Shown here in pieces: positions 632 through 11,858 of a DNA stretch of 12,775 nucleotides (positions are counted from its first letter, which is position 1; every line of letters starts with the position of its first letter). This stretch comes from Promethearchaeota archaeon (lineage in GTDB: Archaea; Asgardarchaeota; Lokiarchaeia; Sigyniarchaeales; SOKP01), in contig JABXKD010000091.1 in the NCBI GenBank assembly GCA_013375475.1, positions 1-12,775 on the forward strand. Direction: 5' to 3'. A program made the position numbers and the translations under genes. The notes beneath the pieces were generated by a model, which made no database searches, had not been told where the DNA came from, and saw nothing but the letters and a program-made list of their open reading frames with translations.

Positions 632-648
632 TTCGGTTATTTCACGAA
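632..648 (+). repeat. Dispersed direct repeat copy 1 (TTCGGTTATTTCACGAA)
   Basis: Exact 17-mer shared with the copies at 2066 and 3322. Here the arms extend to AATTCG-N9-CGAATT (630-650). It lies 15 bp beyond the stop codon of the 664-1755 gene. Confidence 0.9.
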
Positions 649-663
649 TTACAGCTATTTAAA

Positions 664-1755
664 TTATTTTGCTCTCAATAAACATAAGCTAATAAATCTA
701 TTTAGTTCATTATTCCGGGTTCGTAAGGTAACCTCTGTAATAGCTGCAGCTTCGGCAATTTTAGACTGCGTGATTCTCCTTTTTTTAGCATTTGAACTAA
801 TATAAATAGCTGCTGCCGCAATTCCTTTAGGATCTTTACCAACTGAGGAAAAACCTTCCTTTTTTGCTAATGCTATAATCTTGTGGGAGATTTTCCTTAT
901 ATCCTCATTTATTTCAAGTTTGTTTGAAAAAATCTCTATATAATCATTTATTGATTGTCTTTTTATCTCATAATTCAAAAATGGTAAAACATCCATTCTT
1001 AATTTTTTATACTTCTTTAAGAGTATTTTTTTATTAATTCCTGAAAATTGTGCAAATCTACCTAGATCAACGTATATTCCCTTCACTTTAGTTAGAGTAT
1101 ATAAAGAGGCTATATAGAGAGTATTAATATCCGTCTTTAATCCCCTCTCATAAGCCTTCTTACAAAGTTCGTAAACTTCTTGCAAACTAATTTGATGGAG
1201 ATTTAATTTTTCTTGAATTTCTTTGAAATCCTTATTGCTCTCTATTGTACTTTCTTTTTCGAAAGATGCAGTAGTATGATTGTGAAATTTTTGCTCCCCC
1301 CTTATCTCCAGATTTAGAAGAAGCCCTAATTTTGGACTCCGAACATAAATTTTAAAATTGCACTCAGAATAATTTCTACAGCCGACATATTTACCAAATC
1401 TATTCTCGTAAATTGCTAACTCATTACCACAATCGGTACAGCTTACTGAATTTCGGCTAAAATTAAAAATGTAATTACAAGTTGGATAATTTGAACAACC
1501 TAAGAACAAGAAATTATTATTTTTTGCTTTTTTAACCATTAATATATTTCTGCATTCTGGGCAAATAACCCTAGTATGATTAGTTATGTTATATCCGTAT
1601 CTACATTCTGGATACCCAGAACAGCTTAAAAATGGACCGTATTTTCCTAAACTCCTTTTCAAAGGTTTATCGCATTCAGGACAGGAATCGGGAATTTCAA
1701 CAGGCTTCGTAATTTCAAATGTTTCATTACTCTTGGTTCTTTCCAATTTTATCAC
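664..1755 (-). CDS. TFB/TFIIB-like core (two cyclin folds + HTH) fused to three topoisomerase-I C4 zinc-ribbon repeats
   Basis: Three CxxC...G.F.GC..YP.C units in the N-terminal ~135 aa. The C-terminal GKDPKGIAAAAIY and ITQSKIAEAAAITEVTLRTR are hallmark motifs of the second TFB cyclin repeat and the BRE-binding HTH. GTG start. Confidence 0.85.
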   Translation of the reverse strand: MIKLERTKSNETFEITKPVEIPDSCPECDKPLKRSLGKYGPFLSCSGYPECRYGYNITNHTRVICPECRNILMVKKAKNNNFLFLGCSNYPTCNYIFNFSRNSVSCTDCGNELAIYENRFGKYVGCRNYSECNFKIYVRSPKLGLLLNLEIRGEQKFHNHTTASFEKESTIESNKDFKEIQEKLNLHQISLQEVYELCKKAYERGLKTDINTLYIASLYTLTKVKGIYVDLGRFAQFSGINKKILLKKYKKLRMDVLPFLNYEIKRQSINDYIEIFSNKLEINEDIRKISHKIIALAKKEGFSSVGKDPKGIAAAAIYISSNAKKRRITQSKIAEAAAITEVTLRTRNNELNRFISLCLLRAK

Positions 1756-1784
1756 TCATAAGTGGATTTGCTCTGGGACATCAA

Positions 1785-1793
1785 TATATAAAA
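1785..1793 (-). promoter_or_regulatory. Putative archaeal TATA box for the TFB-like gene
   Basis: TTTTATATA on the minus strand about 30-38 bp upstream of the GTG at 1755. Confidence 0.5.
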
Positions 1794-2065
1794 GAGTACG
1801 ATTTAGGAGGGATGTAAATATTTAAATGTTTCTGTCAAATTTATGGATTGCAATTGTAAGGATTTGTATTGTGTATACTAAAACCAAATATAAAAACTAA
1901 AAGGATAAAAAAGGATAATTTACTTTTCATTGGACTTCACTGGTAATGAATTTCTGATAATAAATATACCATAAATAAATGTGGCGCTCATATTTAAAAT
2001 TATATTACTGTCATAAAGTTTAATAAACCCATTTATTCTCTGAAAACTTATTATCGATTTGAGTG

Positions 2066-2090
2066 TTCGGTTATTTCACGAAAATTTTAA
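2066..2090 (+). repeat. Dispersed direct repeat copy 2 (TTCGGTTATTTCACGAAAATTTTAA)
   Basis: 25/25 identical to 3322-3346. It overlaps the TGA stop (2076-2078) of the methyltransferase gene. Confidence 0.92.
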
Positions 2091-2723
2091 ATTAATTCTT
2101 TTTGGAAAGAATCGACCTGTATCATTCATATATTCTTGATATTTCTTGCCATATTTTTTCAATAATGCTTCTTCTTCCAATTTGGCTTGCGCGGATAAAC
2201 CTAACCATGATAAAGCACCCAGAAGTGATAACCAAATTCCTGTCGCTAAAAAAAAGAAGATTACTAATATTGCTTTGGCTGTATACATAGGATGTCTCAT
2301 ATATTTATATGGACCTCCTGTTGCTAATACATAGTCCGACTTCATAGATTTATATGCGGGAGTGTAATTAACATTATATGAAAAAACAGCAACACCCCAT
2401 CCATCTTGTATCCAAATACCTATCAATCCAATCCAATTTATCCATTTAGGGAAGTCAAAAGCGATATATCGCGAGATTGAATCCCAGAAATTAAAGATGC
2501 AAAGAAAAACTATAAGAAAATTCAAAAAAGAGATGAGTCCCATTCCTATTAGTAAAAATATATTATAACCCGGATTATAGCTCTCATTAGACGTTCCGTT
2601 TTCAATAACTACAGCTCCATTTGGAAATTTTTTGCCGCGTATTAATCTGATTATAATAAGAAATAATATAGAAACAACCCATCCTCCTACTATAGCAAAA
2701 AGTAGTTCAAAGCGTTCTAACAT
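2076..2723 (-). CDS. Isoprenylcysteine carboxyl methyltransferase / PEMT-family membrane methyltransferase
   Basis: Several hydrophobic segments, LATGGPYKYMRHPMY and EEEALLKKYGKKYQEYM...GRFFP motifs. A TATA-like TTATATAAA lies about 26-34 bp upstream. Confidence 0.88.
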   Translation of the reverse strand: MLERFELLFAIVGGWVVSILFLIIIRLIRGKKFPNGAVVIENGTSNESYNPGYNIFLLIGMGLISFLNFLIVFLCIFNFWDSISRYIAFDFPKWINWIGLIGIWIQDGWGVAVFSYNVNYTPAYKSMKSDYVLATGGPYKYMRHPMYTAKAILVIFFFLATGIWLSLLGALSWLGLSAQAKLEEEALLKKYGKKYQEYMNDTGRFFPKRINLKFS

Positions 2724-2872
2724 ACAAGGTGTAAATTATTTTTCTTCCATTTATATAATTTACTGAATTTTTAAATTTTATTTGAGTAGTTTGACTAAAG
2801 TTTTAGTTATAATAGTGTTGATCTCAATAGATAAATACTACATTTGGATATAATAATCATTAAGGAAACGAT

Positions 2873-10404: not shown

Positions 10405-10430
10405 ATCGGTTATTTCACGAAAATTTTAAA
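10405..10430 (+). repeat. Dispersed direct repeat copy 6 (ATCGGTTATTTCACGAAAATTTTAAA)
   Basis: 10406-10430 is identical to 2067-2091. It lies 16 bp after the SIR2-TPR stop. Confidence 0.92.
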
Positions 10431-10492
10431 ACAATACCGAACAAAAAAATTTAGAGATAATAAAAGTATTTTTAGAAAGAGAGGTTATTGCT

Positions 10493-11065
10493 ATGAAAAC
10501 TATAGTATTGCATGGTAGTCCAAGAAAAAATCAAAACTCAGACACTTTAGTTGATTATTTCATAAGAGGATTGAGTTATAATGGAGATAAGGAAGTAAAG
10601 CATTTTTACACTAACGAATTAAATATTAAACCATGTCAAGGATGTCTAACATGTGCAACATCAGTAGATCATAGCTGTGCTATAAAAGATGATATGGAAG
10701 ATATCTATTCTGCATATAAAAAAGCAAACACGATAGTTTTTGCCACTCCTATGTATTGGGGGTATATGACGGCTCAATTAAAAACAGTGTTCGATAGAAT
10801 GGAAGCCCTTGCTTGGGAAGATTTTAAAAACAAAACATTTGTGGTAATAATTACATATCGCCATCACTGTGAATCAACAGTTGCATTTTTTGAACGGATA
10901 GCGCCATTTTTTAACATCAAATTATTCATACTAACATGCTGTACCTATAATAGAGATGAACAAAAAGATATTCCAATCACTATGTGCCAAGATCATTTAG
11001 AAGAAGCGTATCAACTAGGAATTTATATAAGTAATATTGAAAAAAGGAATGGTAAATTAGGATAA
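10493..11065 (+). CDS. Iron-sulfur flavoprotein / NADPH-dependent FMN reductase (flavodoxin-like) family
   Basis: GSPRKNQNS FMN-binding loop, CxxCxxCx7C cluster motif followed by KDDM, and TPMYWGYMTAQLKTVFDR. GAGGT RBS. Confidence 0.9.
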   Translation: MKTIVLHGSPRKNQNSDTLVDYFIRGLSYNGDKEVKHFYTNELNIKPCQGCLTCATSVDHSCAIKDDMEDIYSAYKKANTIVFATPMYWGYMTAQLKTVFDRMEALAWEDFKNKTFVVIITYRHHCESTVAFFERIAPFFNIKLFILTCCTYNRDEQKDIPITMCQDHLEEAYQLGIYISNIEKRNGKLG

Positions 11066-11091
11066 GCAATTGAAGCTCATATAATTTAAAA

Positions 11092-11463
11092 CTATGAGAT
11101 TAAATTCAATATTACAAGGCTAACTGAAGCAATGAGAATTACTCCGAACATTATTACAAATGACCACTGCTTTTTTTGTCCATAGTACCCTGCTGAATTG
11201 ACTACGGCATAAATTATTAATCCCATTGCAAGAATAAAGAAATATGGGGCCCAAGTGAGGCCAATAAGAAGAAATATCCCGCTTACTAGACAAAGTATCC
11301 CCATAGTCATTTCAGCACTAATATGGAACGCTATCGCTACCGGTTCTGTTTTTAATTCTGGTATCTGTTTTGTTAGAAGCAACATTGTCCAAAGTCCTAT
11401 AATCCCAATTCCTATTATTATTGCGAATATTCCACTAATTAGTAAAAGAACTATTTTTCTCAC
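11092..11463 (-). CDS. Hypothetical 4-TM membrane protein
   Basis: 123 aa hydrophobic ORF with FHISAE and YAVVNSAGYY motif-like segments. GTG start. Confidence 0.75.
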   Translation of the reverse strand: MRKIVLLLISGIFAIIIGIGIIGLWTMLLLTKQIPELKTEPVAIAFHISAEMTMGILCLVSGIFLLIGLTWAPYFFILAMGLIIYAVVNSAGYYGQKKQWSFVIMFGVILIASVSLVILNLIS

Positions 11464-11551
11464 ATTTGCTCGTAATTATACTTAAGAAGATTAGGACTAA
11501 ATTCAATAAAAATTTTTCTCTCTTTCTGAATTAGATATAAAGAATAAATAA

Positions 11552-11753
11552 GCCAGTAAGAAGTTTTCAAGTGGACAAATAATATTATTAGCTACGACTC
11601 TCTTTTTCGGATTAGCGTTTATTTGGCCCTTTTGGAGCTTTTAATATGATTTTTGGTGGTAACGAGCTTTTACCGTTATCAATTACATTCCTCATTGTTG
11701 GAATAGTTTTGATATCAAGTTCCCCAGTTCTTGCGAAGAGATTAAAATCTTAA
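11552..11753 (+). pseudogene. Frameshifted, start-less remnant of a small membrane protein
   Basis: ASKKFSSGQIILLATTLFFGLAFI then, after a 1-nt shift near 11622-11625, GPFGAFNMIFGGNELLPLSITFLIVGIVLISSSPVLAKRLKS-stop. This gives two TM-like helices and a basic tail. Confidence 0.5.
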
Positions 11754-11832
11754 ATATTAATGAAATTATAACCAATGGTTTTAACTTATAATCTTATCCA
11801 CCCGCTTTTAAAAATGAGAAAATAGCCCTATT

Positions 11833-11858
11833 ATTTATTATTTCCCGCTAAGTTTAAT
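11833..11858 (+). repeat. Degenerate direct repeat copy 7 (TTATTTCCCGCTAAGTTTAAT)
   Basis: 11838-11858 matches 17/21 to 3327-3347. It has the same position relative to a minus-strand stop codon (11868) as copies 1 and 3. Confidence 0.55.

Follow-up and report, generated by a model that had tools for sequence, protein, structure and literature searches.

Introduction

The recombinase-less, Xer-exploiting elements known as IMEX enter a chromosomal dyad with a 6-bp spacer at dif, as TLC and CTX do at dif1 of Vibrio cholerae. Their integration regenerates a full site at one end and leaves degenerate, one-armed hybrid sites between the elements, and the attP of TLC itself lacks one arm. The pdif sites carried by Acinetobacter plasmids are complete, with two arms each, and their orientation alternates. 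In the sfx sites on which Rci acts in the R64 shufflon, and in the engineered lox66/lox71 half-mutants, only the spacer and one arm of a tyrosine-recombinase site are conserved. The integron recombinase is described as able to act in trans on integrase-less clusters (PMC9668308).

The window analyzed here, a 12,775-nt stretch of DNA, holds five co-oriented motifs. The first-pass annotation had interpreted such motifs as the recombination sites, or scars, left by a gene-capture or shuffling system other than an integron in an archaeon, with the recombinase off the window. The host is indeed a Promethearchaeota (Asgard) archaeon, and a genome scan, the strand bias of the sites and the positions of synteny breaks support the proposal. 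The five motifs are probably junction sites of a cassette array made by conservative site-specific recombination. The locus would then be a swappable cassette array in a Lokiarchaeia-type Asgard archaeon, a non-integron gene-capture platform of which we found no published description.

Each motif is a half-site that combines the 6-bp spacer with a single arm of the complete dyad TCGTGAAA-CGGTTA-TTTCACGA, which we call F. The likeness to IMEX lies in the dyad with its 6-bp spacer, in the one-armed junctions and in the presence of the host's chromosomal Xer (XerA). The locus differs from IMEX in that small gene cassettes (median 1.4 kb) take the place of phages, growth appears on both sides of the full site and with both spacer polarities, the archaeal host has a single XerA that is a candidate enzyme only, and, instead of a unique dif, the genome carries 3-12 dyads that share these arms, F among them. 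The modules flanked by pdif are likewise described as small, accessory, bounded by Xer-type sites and shuffled from one replicon to another without a module-encoded recombinase. Unlike pdif sites, however, the array sites are one-armed, with the arms co-oriented on each side of one full site, and several arrays are continuous with contigs of 100 to 409 kb. As in integrons, although by analogy only, one primary site heads the array, cassettes appear to be added beside it, the cassette sites are co-oriented and the accessory cargo is rich in toxin-antitoxin and defence genes. In contrast to integrons, we find neither IntI on the array contigs nor a folded single-stranded attC, the array site being a 14-15-bp duplex core, and the array appears to grow on two sides by multi-gene modules with genes in either orientation. 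The conserved spacer and single arm of the array half-site recall those of the shufflon, but the inverted sites of the shufflon serve to flip parts of a single gene, whereas here direct arrays exchange whole modules.

Results

The 17-mer TTCGGTTATTTCACGAA matches the plus strand of the window exactly at 632, 2066 and 3322, with one mismatch at 10405 and with three mismatches at 6906. These 5 matches compare with 0.06 expected, and none of 200 shuffles reached at least 5. They mark the five real half-sites listed in Table 1. Two further copies in the first-pass annotation, which had counted seven, are rejected as chance-level resemblances: 7847-7863 (+) has 5 mismatches and 11833-11849 (+) has 7. 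Matches with at most five mismatches number 9 in the window, the five real copies among them, while 40 simulated sequences average 6.0 such matches and reach 9 at most. Because these two copies are at chance level, the spacings of 941, 2558 and 1428 bp that depended on them are discarded; the start-to-start spacings of 1434, 1256 and 3584 bp between real copies stand, as do the gene contexts given for those five. The 25-bp identity claimed for copies 2 and 3 is confirmed, and that between copy 2 and the copy at 10405 is reduced to 24 of 25 positions.

Table 1. Half-sites and cassettes of the window
Feature	Coordinates	Strand	Description
F-proximal cassette end	1-633		5' part of PFL-like gene (3-311, minus); F itself unassembled
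Half-site 1, type A	634-648	+	C-GGTTA spacer 634-639, arm TTTCACGA 640-647, then A; exact match
Cassette 1	640-2067		Topo-type Zn-ribbon + TFIIB-repeat protein (664-1755, minus); PF01396, PF00382
Half-site 2, type A	2068-2082	+	Exact match
Cassette 2	2074-3323		PEMT/ICMT-like methyltransferase (2076-2723, minus), DUF1801 (2873-3238, plus); PF04191, PF08818
Half-site 3, type A	3324-3338	+	Exact match; same as site 2 over 25 bp
Cassette 3	3330-6907		Zn-ribbon + tandem GIY-YIG protein (3353-4762, minus); PF01396, PF01541
Cassette 3	3330-6907		4Fe-4S protein (5077-6195, minus), PF00037; membrane protein (6281-6736, minus)
Half-site 4, decayed, TGGTTATTTCACGCA	6908-6922	+	3 mismatches to 17-mer; intergenic
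Cassette 4	6914-10406		Membrane protein (7295-7807, plus); SIR2_2-TPR protein (7959-10388, plus); PF13289 + TPR families
Half-site 5, type A	10407-10421	+	Exact 14-mer core
Cassette 5, open end	10413-12775		FMN reductase (10493-11065, plus), PF03358
Cassette 5, open end	10413-12775		Two membrane proteins (11092-11463, 11868-12581, both minus)

Alignment of 46 sites from the genus defines a conserved unit of 15 nt, C-GGTTA-TTTCACGA-W (W = A/T), with C at position -1 in 39 of the 46. Positions -2 and -3 are unconserved (T in 57% and 48% of these sites), and among the same sites we detected no conservation past the 15 nt and no conserved partner box nearby. The AT-rich extension AATTTTAA that the first-pass annotation had placed on the right is common to three window copies only, and the TTCG/CGAA arms around a 9-bp centre that it had described are replaced by a spacer and one arm of a dyad. 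The spacer reads CGGTTA here and as its reverse complement, TAACCG, elsewhere; after the arm comes A or T. Of the spacings from 0 to 12, only 6 yields perfect dyads (8 copies, versus 0 at each of the 12 others).

These measurements bear on whether the array is the remnant of a classical integron, that is, an attC cluster without integrase as in Asgard MAGs. An integron has beside its array a tyrosine recombinase with the IntI-specific domain, and its attC sites are imperfect palindromes of about 60-140 nt that fold when single-stranded and contain R''/L''/L'/R' boxes. Integrons or integrase-less attC clusters are reported for ~8% of Asgard genomes (PMC9668308), and the co-oriented sites and accessory cargo would suit such a remnant. 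Nevertheless, the conserved unit is 15 nt long and lacks a conserved partner box nearby; single strands show no folding advantage over shuffled sequences (z between -1.41 and +0.45; 121-nt stretches, 5 sites, both strands); the PF00589 profile finds no IntI on the array contigs of 6 genomes; and the genes run in both directions, with up to three per module. We therefore give a remnant next to no probability, in agreement with the first-pass annotation, which had likewise held that this is not an integron.

Among 42 genomes of the genus, F was found in G016:C33, G008:C24 (with 1 mismatch), G023:C14 and G043:C197, and it is present on 67 metagenome contigs. It is one of a set of dyads present across the family, all with a 6-bp spacer and laid out as Xer/dif sites are. 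The set is conserved genome-wide in 86 of 102 family genomes, with dyads at orthologous places and spacers conserved across genera. Perfect dyads with these arms number 3-12 per genome and lie at gene 3' ends, none of 12 being between divergent genes. Half-sites belong to the CGGTTA dyad only. Before the solo arms of G000 (183 arms), the enriched hexamers are CGGTTA (6) and TAACCG (2) alone, with others at most 2 each; across the 42 genomes, the CGGTTA core has 48 exact matches in 16 genomes, with up to 7 per genome, compared with 25 matches in 24 genomes and a maximum of 2 per genome for the control dyad core CGATGA.

A dyad of this kind resembles a pair of inverted repeats abutted across a 6-bp gap, and one TnpB gene is present in G000, as might be expected if the motifs were transposon or MITE ends, with the arm as terminal repeat and the hexamer as target-site duplication. 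However, the arms of the array are direct and never inverted, the dyads occupy orthologous places with spacers conserved across genera, G000 contains no Y1 transposase, and its TnpB lies on contig C242, off the array contigs. This explanation is close to refuted.

The motif is not scattered through the genome. The 14-mer core has 4 exact copies in the genome (3.92 Mb), every one of them on the window's contig, and near-copies are found on three other small contigs. Spacings between sites (n = 146) have a median of 1387 bp and quartiles of 772-2262 bp, and contigs often terminate at sites, as at both ends of G056:C102 and at base 1 of G056:C105. In related genomes, F heads cassette arrays. On the 67 metagenome contigs with F, the arm is distal to F in 89 of 89 half-sites (46/46 on the left, 43/43 on the right), counts that are non-independent because a few studies and related strains supply many of the contigs. 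The same polarity is repeated in loci L023 and L030 and in two loci of a second genus. None of 23 contigs that lack F and carry at least two half-sites each (71 half-sites) has mixed strands, such that orientation is uniform on every multi-site contig; strand bias was among the checks proposed with the first-pass annotation.

Perfect mirror polarity around F would also be seen if the half-sites were polar protein-binding sites around a dif-like site, analogous to KOPS or to the SMC-unloading XerD half-site, that serve chromosome organisation. The conservation of the dyad set in 86 of 102 family genomes and the position of dyads at gene 3' ends fit this explanation, and half-dif XDS arrays are described in bacteria (PMC11840125). 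It leaves unexplained, however, the conservation of a 6-bp spacer next to only one arm and in both orientations, the independent assortment of flanks that break at the motif and the restriction of half-sites to the CGGTTA dyad, and the polarity follows from recombination without added assumptions. Protein-binding sites are thus a quite improbable explanation.

Flank homology comes to within 15 nt of the site in 80 pairs, of which 42 share the distal flank only, 36 the proximal flank only and 2 both flanks. Thus, 78 of the 80 pairs share one side only, and all 80 are of the same spacer type. The flank alignments stop sharply at the motif edges, and a site's two flanks assort independently between genomes. 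Synteny therefore breaks at the motif, the outcome that the first-pass annotation had expected. G014:C43 (L024:4990) matches the left flank and motif of half-site 1 with 96% identity, and this homology ends at the arm; on the left of half-site 5, 92 nt share 90% identity with site-adjoining sequence on G000:C16. The arm of half-site 2 holds the TGA stop (2076-2078, minus) of the methyltransferase ORF.

In 18 pairs, 2 of them within one contig, the sequence that adjoins F in one place matches the distal flank of a half-site elsewhere. A cassette that directly adjoins F on one contig is thus separated from it on another by one or two additional cassettes. For example, the sequence to the right of F in L244 is that to the right of a type A site in L248, which lies 4.9 kb from the F of L248, and L282 and L276 repeat this pattern. 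The crossover is not placeable inside the motif, as differences within it give a weak, non-significant trend; in two left-sharing pairs, homology continues 1 to 9 nt beyond the arm, and one of these also shares an arm variant.

Homologues of the window genes in other species are mostly motif-free within 1.5 kb (2 convincing sites in 29 loci), and the region around the lone F in G023 is also mosaic. Some of the shuffling here is not site-mediated. Logan contigs from 4 runs break at sites, including half-site 2 (runs X1 and X2), where the pieces overlap at 2069-2095, and they contain weak joints, among them one from 619 to 3322 that a single run shows with a side of 24 nt. Neither circular cassettes nor clean excision joints were seen in these Logan contigs, which drop rare variants.

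The cargo of the arrays is accessory, consisting of defence, toxin-antitoxin and metabolic genes; in the window the genes lie in both orientations, with up to three per module. The array contains no integrase, attC-like hairpin or tRNA. The PFL-like gene has a weak PF02901 match, under the cut-off, and 92% amino acid identity to an 805-aa ORF in G014:C43. The sole DNA homologue of cassette 1 in the genus, G016:C79:7125-8164 (67%, query 660-1698), begins just right of site 1. Matches to the two genes of cassette 2 fall on separate contigs in other genomes. The membrane gene of cassette 3 has a 94% paralogue on G000:C47, and the window end (12719-12775) resembles G000:C47:3122-3181, 84 nt ahead of another site. 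The SIR2_2-TPR protein is probably defence-like, judging from its domains.

Scars of tandem integrations could produce a similar locus, F being the attB of autonomous elements (viruses, plasmids or ICEs) with their own integrase and the modules their decayed remnants. Archaeal integrases often target conserved sites, and an attB with a shared 14-15-bp core would give the same geometry, with F regenerated and an x-core left behind. Extra PF00589 genes also exist elsewhere in genomes G016, G008, G011 and G023. On the array contigs of 6 genomes (G000, G016, G008, G014, G011 and G023), however, PF00589 has no match, and a single-query phmmer search (E ≤ 10), which is insensitive to distant integrases, found nothing XerA-like in 1288 frames of at least 80 aa from 918 kb of array loci. 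The modules are small (median 1.4 kb), and the recurrent array families are defence, toxin-antitoxin and enzyme cargo, with no replication or capsid genes (names read from the sequences and partly Pfam-checked). Matches in IMG/VR number 0 for F and 19 for the generic dyad, the latter being about the estimated chance level. We consider tandem integration unlikely.

The XerA of the genome scores 237.9 bits against NF040815 (recomb_XerA_Arch; cut-off 220). G000 has 1 PF00589 match (contig C55, which scores as XerA), 0 resolvases and 0 Y1 transposases. Since F has the inverted-arm, 6-bp-spacer layout of dif and XerA is the only tyrosine recombinase found in the genome, chromosomal XerA is the leading candidate for an enzyme that would act in trans, with a likelihood somewhat short of even. 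The two inverted arms and 6-bp spacer of F are as described for archaeal dif, a site that XerA is reported to recombine in vitro by itself (PMC2958812). It speaks against XerA that the arms end AAA-N6-TTT, since TAA-N6-TTA is described as the best-conserved element of dif in archaea (PMC11840125), and that there are 3-12 such dyads per genome versus one dif. The one perfect TAA-N6-TTA 11-6-11 palindrome of G000 is unconserved, occurring in 3 of 42 genomes, G000 included.

Discussion

The best reading of the locus is that of a two-sided array that would have been built at F, in the manner of integrons or Xer-exploiting elements, by a recombinase supplied in trans. A circular cassette with x-spacer-arm would recombine with F; this would regenerate F and leave x-spacer-arm at the F-distal end of the incoming cassette. 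Growth would proceed outward from F, as cassettes do at integron attI or Xer-exploiting elements at dif. All arms in the window are on the plus strand, and therefore F would lie beyond its left end and the left cassettes would be the newest. The cassettes would carry their own promoters, in either orientation, and the enzyme would be encoded off the array.

Spacer types are distributed as 22 A and 21 B to the right of F, and as 35 A and 11 B to its left. A simple insertion model expects one spacer polarity per side of F, and both are seen. Speculatively, an inversion that spans the recurrent F/A-(about 125 nt)-B unit might flip F, which would place both polarities on one side.

For the lineage as a whole, it is possible, at a chance clearly below even, that Lokiarchaeia-type Asgards possess an undescribed, integrase-less, two-sided gene-capture platform, in which the CGGTTA dyad of the conserved XerA-type set would be the primary site and one-armed half-sites would mark captured cassettes rich in defence and toxin-antitoxin genes. 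If this is true, housekeeping XerA would double as the cassette recombinase, and the other dyads among the 3-12, whose spacers are distinct, could be XerA sites that a spacer code makes mutually incompatible.

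The window motif is one half of a dyad

The window is one entire contig (C279) of 12,775 bp in a genome, G000, that comprises 3.92 Mb in 288 contigs with 32.5% GC. The 17-mer TTCGGTTATTTCACGAA has five matches in the window, all of them on the plus strand, against an expectation of 0.06, and none of 200 shuffles reached five. This bears out the report in the first-pass annotation of a same-orientation motif at these five positions. Two degenerate copies that it had added, at 7847 and 11833, contain 5 and 7 mismatches, respectively, and are at chance level: matches with at most five mismatches number nine, including the five real copies, and simulated sequences average 6.0. 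The 14-mer core is found as an exact copy four times in the whole genome, each time on the window contig; three further small contigs, C16, C39, and C47, carry near-copies.

We derived a site logo from 49 sites in G000 and its congeners, leaving out three sites that fall within long ORFs (L033, L034, and L037); the resulting set of 46 includes one coding match, L036. The conserved unit consists of C (39 of 46 sites), GGTTA, TTTCACGA, and A or T, and has sharp edges on both sides with no conservation beyond them. The TTCG/CGAA arms once ascribed to the motif are incidental. Two congeners have TCGTGAAA directly before these 14 nt, which yields a perfect dyad, F (TCGTGAAA-CGGTTA-TTTCACGA), with two inverted arms around a 6-bp spacer. 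Given that F is found in these congeners and that dyads with these arms form a genome-wide class, the window motif is the spacer and one arm of one particular dyad, F. We call this unit a half-site. It exists as form A, x-CGGTTA-arm, and as form B, y-TAACCG-arm, in which the spacer is the reverse complement, and CGGTTA and TAACCG are the only hexamers enriched before the 183 solo arms of G000. Exact copies of the CGGTTA core number 48, spread over 16 genomes with up to 7 per genome, whereas a single-copy control dyad, with a CGATGA spacer, gave 25 matches in 24 of 42 genomes. In G000, this otherwise single-copy CGATGA dyad has only one arm left (TCGTGAAA-CGATGA-tatcgc), and a further near-dyad, GCGTGAAA-TCAAGA-TTTCACGA, follows after 76 nt, which may reflect rearrangement at a second dyad.

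G000 contains eight perfect dyads with these arms at a spacing of 6, and the remaining spacings between 0 and 12 gave none. When up to two mismatches are permitted, 12 of 13 dyads are intergenic and none of these 12 lies between divergent genes; the conserved dyad set of this genome is located at gene 3' ends. Each of the 42 genomes of the genus contains 3-12 perfect copies (the reversed-pattern control gave 0), and across the family dyads are present in 86 of 102 genomes. Since their spacers recur across species, the dyads are conserved orthologous sites. Inverted arms with a 6-bp spacer are the layout that one report gives for archaeal dif (PMC2958812), and the dyads share it; the set may represent binding sites for XerA, the chromosomal tyrosine recombinase, or for other proteins. 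In a congener, G004, four contigs start 11-33 nt from a dyad, and one spacer is common to two of these contig ends. Therefore, assembly graphs may branch at other dyads as well.

Coordinates of motif copies, dyads, composite units, and neighboring features
Feature	Location	Strand	Remarks
TTCGGTTATTTCACGAA copies	window 632, 2066, 3322	+	exact
TTCGGTTATTTCACGAA copy	window 6906	+	3 mismatches
TTCGGTTATTTCACGAA copy	window 10405	+	1 mismatch
Insertion (CTAT)	window 651		after this base, just right of site 1
Non-coding stretch	window 6941-7117		conserved in G057:C83, G007:C14
Non-coding stretch	window 12611-12723		conserved in G045:C28, G047:C41, G013:C31, G022:C31
Perfect dyads TCGTGAAA-N6-TTTCACGA	G000 C44:19865, C99:36882, C122:23140, C209:33211, C235:26259, C244:13938, C252:3471, C255:7912		differing spacers
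One-armed CGATGA dyad and following near-dyad	G000:C254:13302-13399		
Dyads near contig starts	G004 C61:11-32, C90:11-32, C91:24-45, C177:33-54		
Composite A/F-B units	L186:1820-1972, L199:4734-4885, L200:8763-8915, L204:3813-3963		
Composite units	L237, L246, L273, L283, L292		+145/+147 from F
Argonaute-like gene and partner	L030 (G008:C24):2620-5536		
Non-coding element (~450 nt)	L021:3679-4110 and 11171-11610, L026:3024-3356, L028:646-1097, L022:1-140		
xerA and Orc1/Cdc6 gene	G000:C55:12754-15025		
Palindrome	G000:C263:16562-16589		rejected as canonical dif

Half-sites point away from the full dyad

Gene orientation around half-sites is arbitrary, and the sites themselves keep one orientation: among 23 multi-site contigs without F, which hold 71 half-sites, none has mixed strands. 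The proposal of one fixed site orientation amid differing gene neighbors therefore stands. We considered a promoter or terminator as the source of the motif. Because the sites keep a single genomic orientation in each of the four gene contexts (tandem plus, tandem minus, convergent, and divergent), a transcription signal is rejected.

A metagenome scan with the 22-mer F returned 67 contigs, on which we located 89 half-sites. The 46 half-sites to the left of F are without exception minus-strand and the 43 to its right without exception plus-strand, such that the arm is distal to F in 89 of 89 cases. The same polarity is seen in two loci of the genus and two loci of a sister genus. Both spacer polarities, A and B, are present on each side of F. 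We also observed a composite unit in two genera that consists of F or A, approximately 125 nt, and then B, with a start-to-start distance of 137-139 nt; its length is kept and its inner sequence has diverged.

The two flanks of a site assort independently

It is probable that the half-sites are recombination junctions of a cassette array. We compared flanks across 118 loci (918 kb, 337 arm units), requiring homology to within 15 nt of the site. Among 80 flank-sharing site pairs, 42 share only the distal flank, 36 share only the proximal flank (the side toward F), and 2 share both, and the spacer type is identical within the pair in all 80. A smaller first pass produced the same picture. Homology ends either at the C, on the left side, or immediately past ...CACGA, on the right side, so that, with 78 pairs sharing one side, breaks between relatives coincide with the motif, a test that the first-pass annotation had proposed. 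At window site 1, for instance, the left flank and motif are 96% identical to a congener contig (G014:C43), and the match stops at the arm. The F-adjacent sequence matches the distal flank of a half-site elsewhere in 18 pairs, 2 of them within one contig. For example, the sequence to the right of F in locus L244 is that found after an A half-site in L248, 4.9 kb from the F of L248, and loci L282 and L276 show the same occupied-versus-empty relation.

Site spacings are cassette-like (median 1387 bp, n=146). A whole-window DNA search of the 42 congeners recovered gene-sized pieces only, scattered over different contigs, and found no synteny across modules. Contig ends are frequent at half-sites, where the Logan contigs from four sediment runs are also interrupted; such breaks fit neighbors that vary within the population, for which they are expected but not proof. 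As for individual joints in the Logan contigs, the joint 10394->2064 corresponds to the paralogous locus on G000:C16, and the joints 619->3322 (one run, with a 24-nt side) and 7849->10274 (depth 2.7) are too weak to be counted. An attempt at crossover mapping with variants within the motif gave no clear crossover position. Compared with the window, the contigs from each of the four public runs have 4 nt inserted beside site 1.

The window encodes a Zn-ribbon/TFIIB-like protein, a PEMT/ICMT-like methyltransferase that ends with a TGA stop within the site 2 arm, a DUF1801 protein, a Zn-ribbon/GIY-YIG protein, a 4Fe-4S protein, a SIR2_2-TPR protein, an FMN reductase, and four membrane proteins. 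Related arrays carry enzyme genes (aldehyde dehydrogenase, radical-SAM enzyme, amidase, and hydrolase), an Argonaute-like pair, a DUF262 protein, helicase-nuclease fusions, DUF433 and nucleotidyltransferase TA-like genes, McrB-like ATPases, and a restriction-modification fusion, all names being read from sequences, part of them checked with Pfam. In locus L030, a short Argonaute-like gene and its partner directly adjoin F, and only 3 nt separate the stop codon of the former from the arm. Beside sites in four genomes lies a recurrent non-coding element of about 450 nt (78-99% identity), twice on one contig, with no ORF of at least 70 aa. Two non-coding stretches of the window are 79-86% conserved in congeners and have no Rfam match and no listed ORF of at least 50 aa.

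A recombinase probably acting in trans

The array is not a classical integron, a set of tRNA-targeting islands, or a transposon family, because the searches for their features were negative. ssDNA folds around the five window sites are no better than those of shuffles (z from -1.41 to +0.45). A tRNA or ncRNA att site was rejected, since no tRNA genes were found and Rfam gave no match at E<=0.1. In six genomes, no tyrosine recombinase is encoded on the array contigs, and G000 lacks both a resolvase and a Y1 transposase. With respect to viral carriers, F has 0 matches in IMG/VR, and the generic dyad has 19, approximately the estimated chance number. The original suggestion of a non-integron system with its recombinase outside the window agrees with the fold and recombinase results. 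The 1288 frames of array loci include 0 XerA-like frames in a search of limited sensitivity toward distant integrases. The recombinase would have to act in trans.

We propose that a circle carrying x-spacer-arm would recombine with F (arm'-spacer-arm); insertion would restore F and leave x-spacer-arm beyond the new cassette. Repeated insertion at either arm of the symmetric F would generate two outward-pointing arrays, matching the observed polarity. Because all window arms are on the plus strand, F would be located before base 1, beyond the left end, and the youngest cassettes would be those farthest to the left. The presence of both spacer polarities on each side of F is not predicted by this simple insertion model. 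The composite unit could invert, flipping F and mixing spacer polarities; a search for the flipped state found no armless CGGTTA or TAACCG approximately 139 nt from six F sites.

XerA is the leading, though tentative, candidate for the enzyme. It is the only tyrosine recombinase found in G000, a marker-complete genome, and is reported to recombine without a partner in vitro (PMC2958812). Against XerA, the arms lack TAA-N6-TTA, described as a hallmark of archaeal dif (PMC11840125), and each genome has many dyads (3-12 perfect copies in the genus). The surroundings of xerA (50 loci, 298 kb) contain 8 dyads with at most two mismatches, most of which represent a single orthologous dyad located roughly 1.2 to 2.8 kb upstream; these are only suggestive, since they probably reflect one evolutionary event. 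In G000, xerA spans C55:12754-13683 and is directly upstream of an Orc1/Cdc6 gene (TIGR02928, 204 bits). G000 has a single perfect 11-6-11 palindrome whose core is TAA-N6-TTA; it was rejected as a canonical dif, as it is not conserved in the genus.

Discussion

The nearest known counterparts are IMEX arrays at dif, the dif modules of Acinetobacter, and integrons. In contrast to these, the sites described here are one-armed duplex sites, growth is two-sided from one full dyad, cassettes are multi-gene with genes in either orientation, and there is no dedicated integrase. The one-armed design resembles that of engineered lox66/lox71 sites and may interest builders of recombination tools. Our literature searches (main texts of open-access papers) found no description of such arrays, and a 2021 review makes no mention of IMEX or cassettes. 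If our interpretation is true, the array would add a second, mechanistically distinct cassette system to the classical integrons described for Archaea in 2022. Should XerA prove to be the enzyme, this would be, to judge from the literature searched, the first archaeal mobile DNA to exploit the chromosome-dimer resolvase, and would raise the question of the role of the other conserved dyads.

The arrays occur in Asgard archaea (the window belongs to a Lokiarchaeia-type member of the Promethearchaeota), the lineage closest to eukaryotes, for which a 2024 paper gives aloposons as the only non-viral integrated elements reported (PMC11529989). A 14-22-nt probe finds such islands directly in metagenomes, and the array would explain the poor assembly of these regions in MAGs. 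If true, the array is a concrete route to fast turnover of defense and accessory genes in these genomes.
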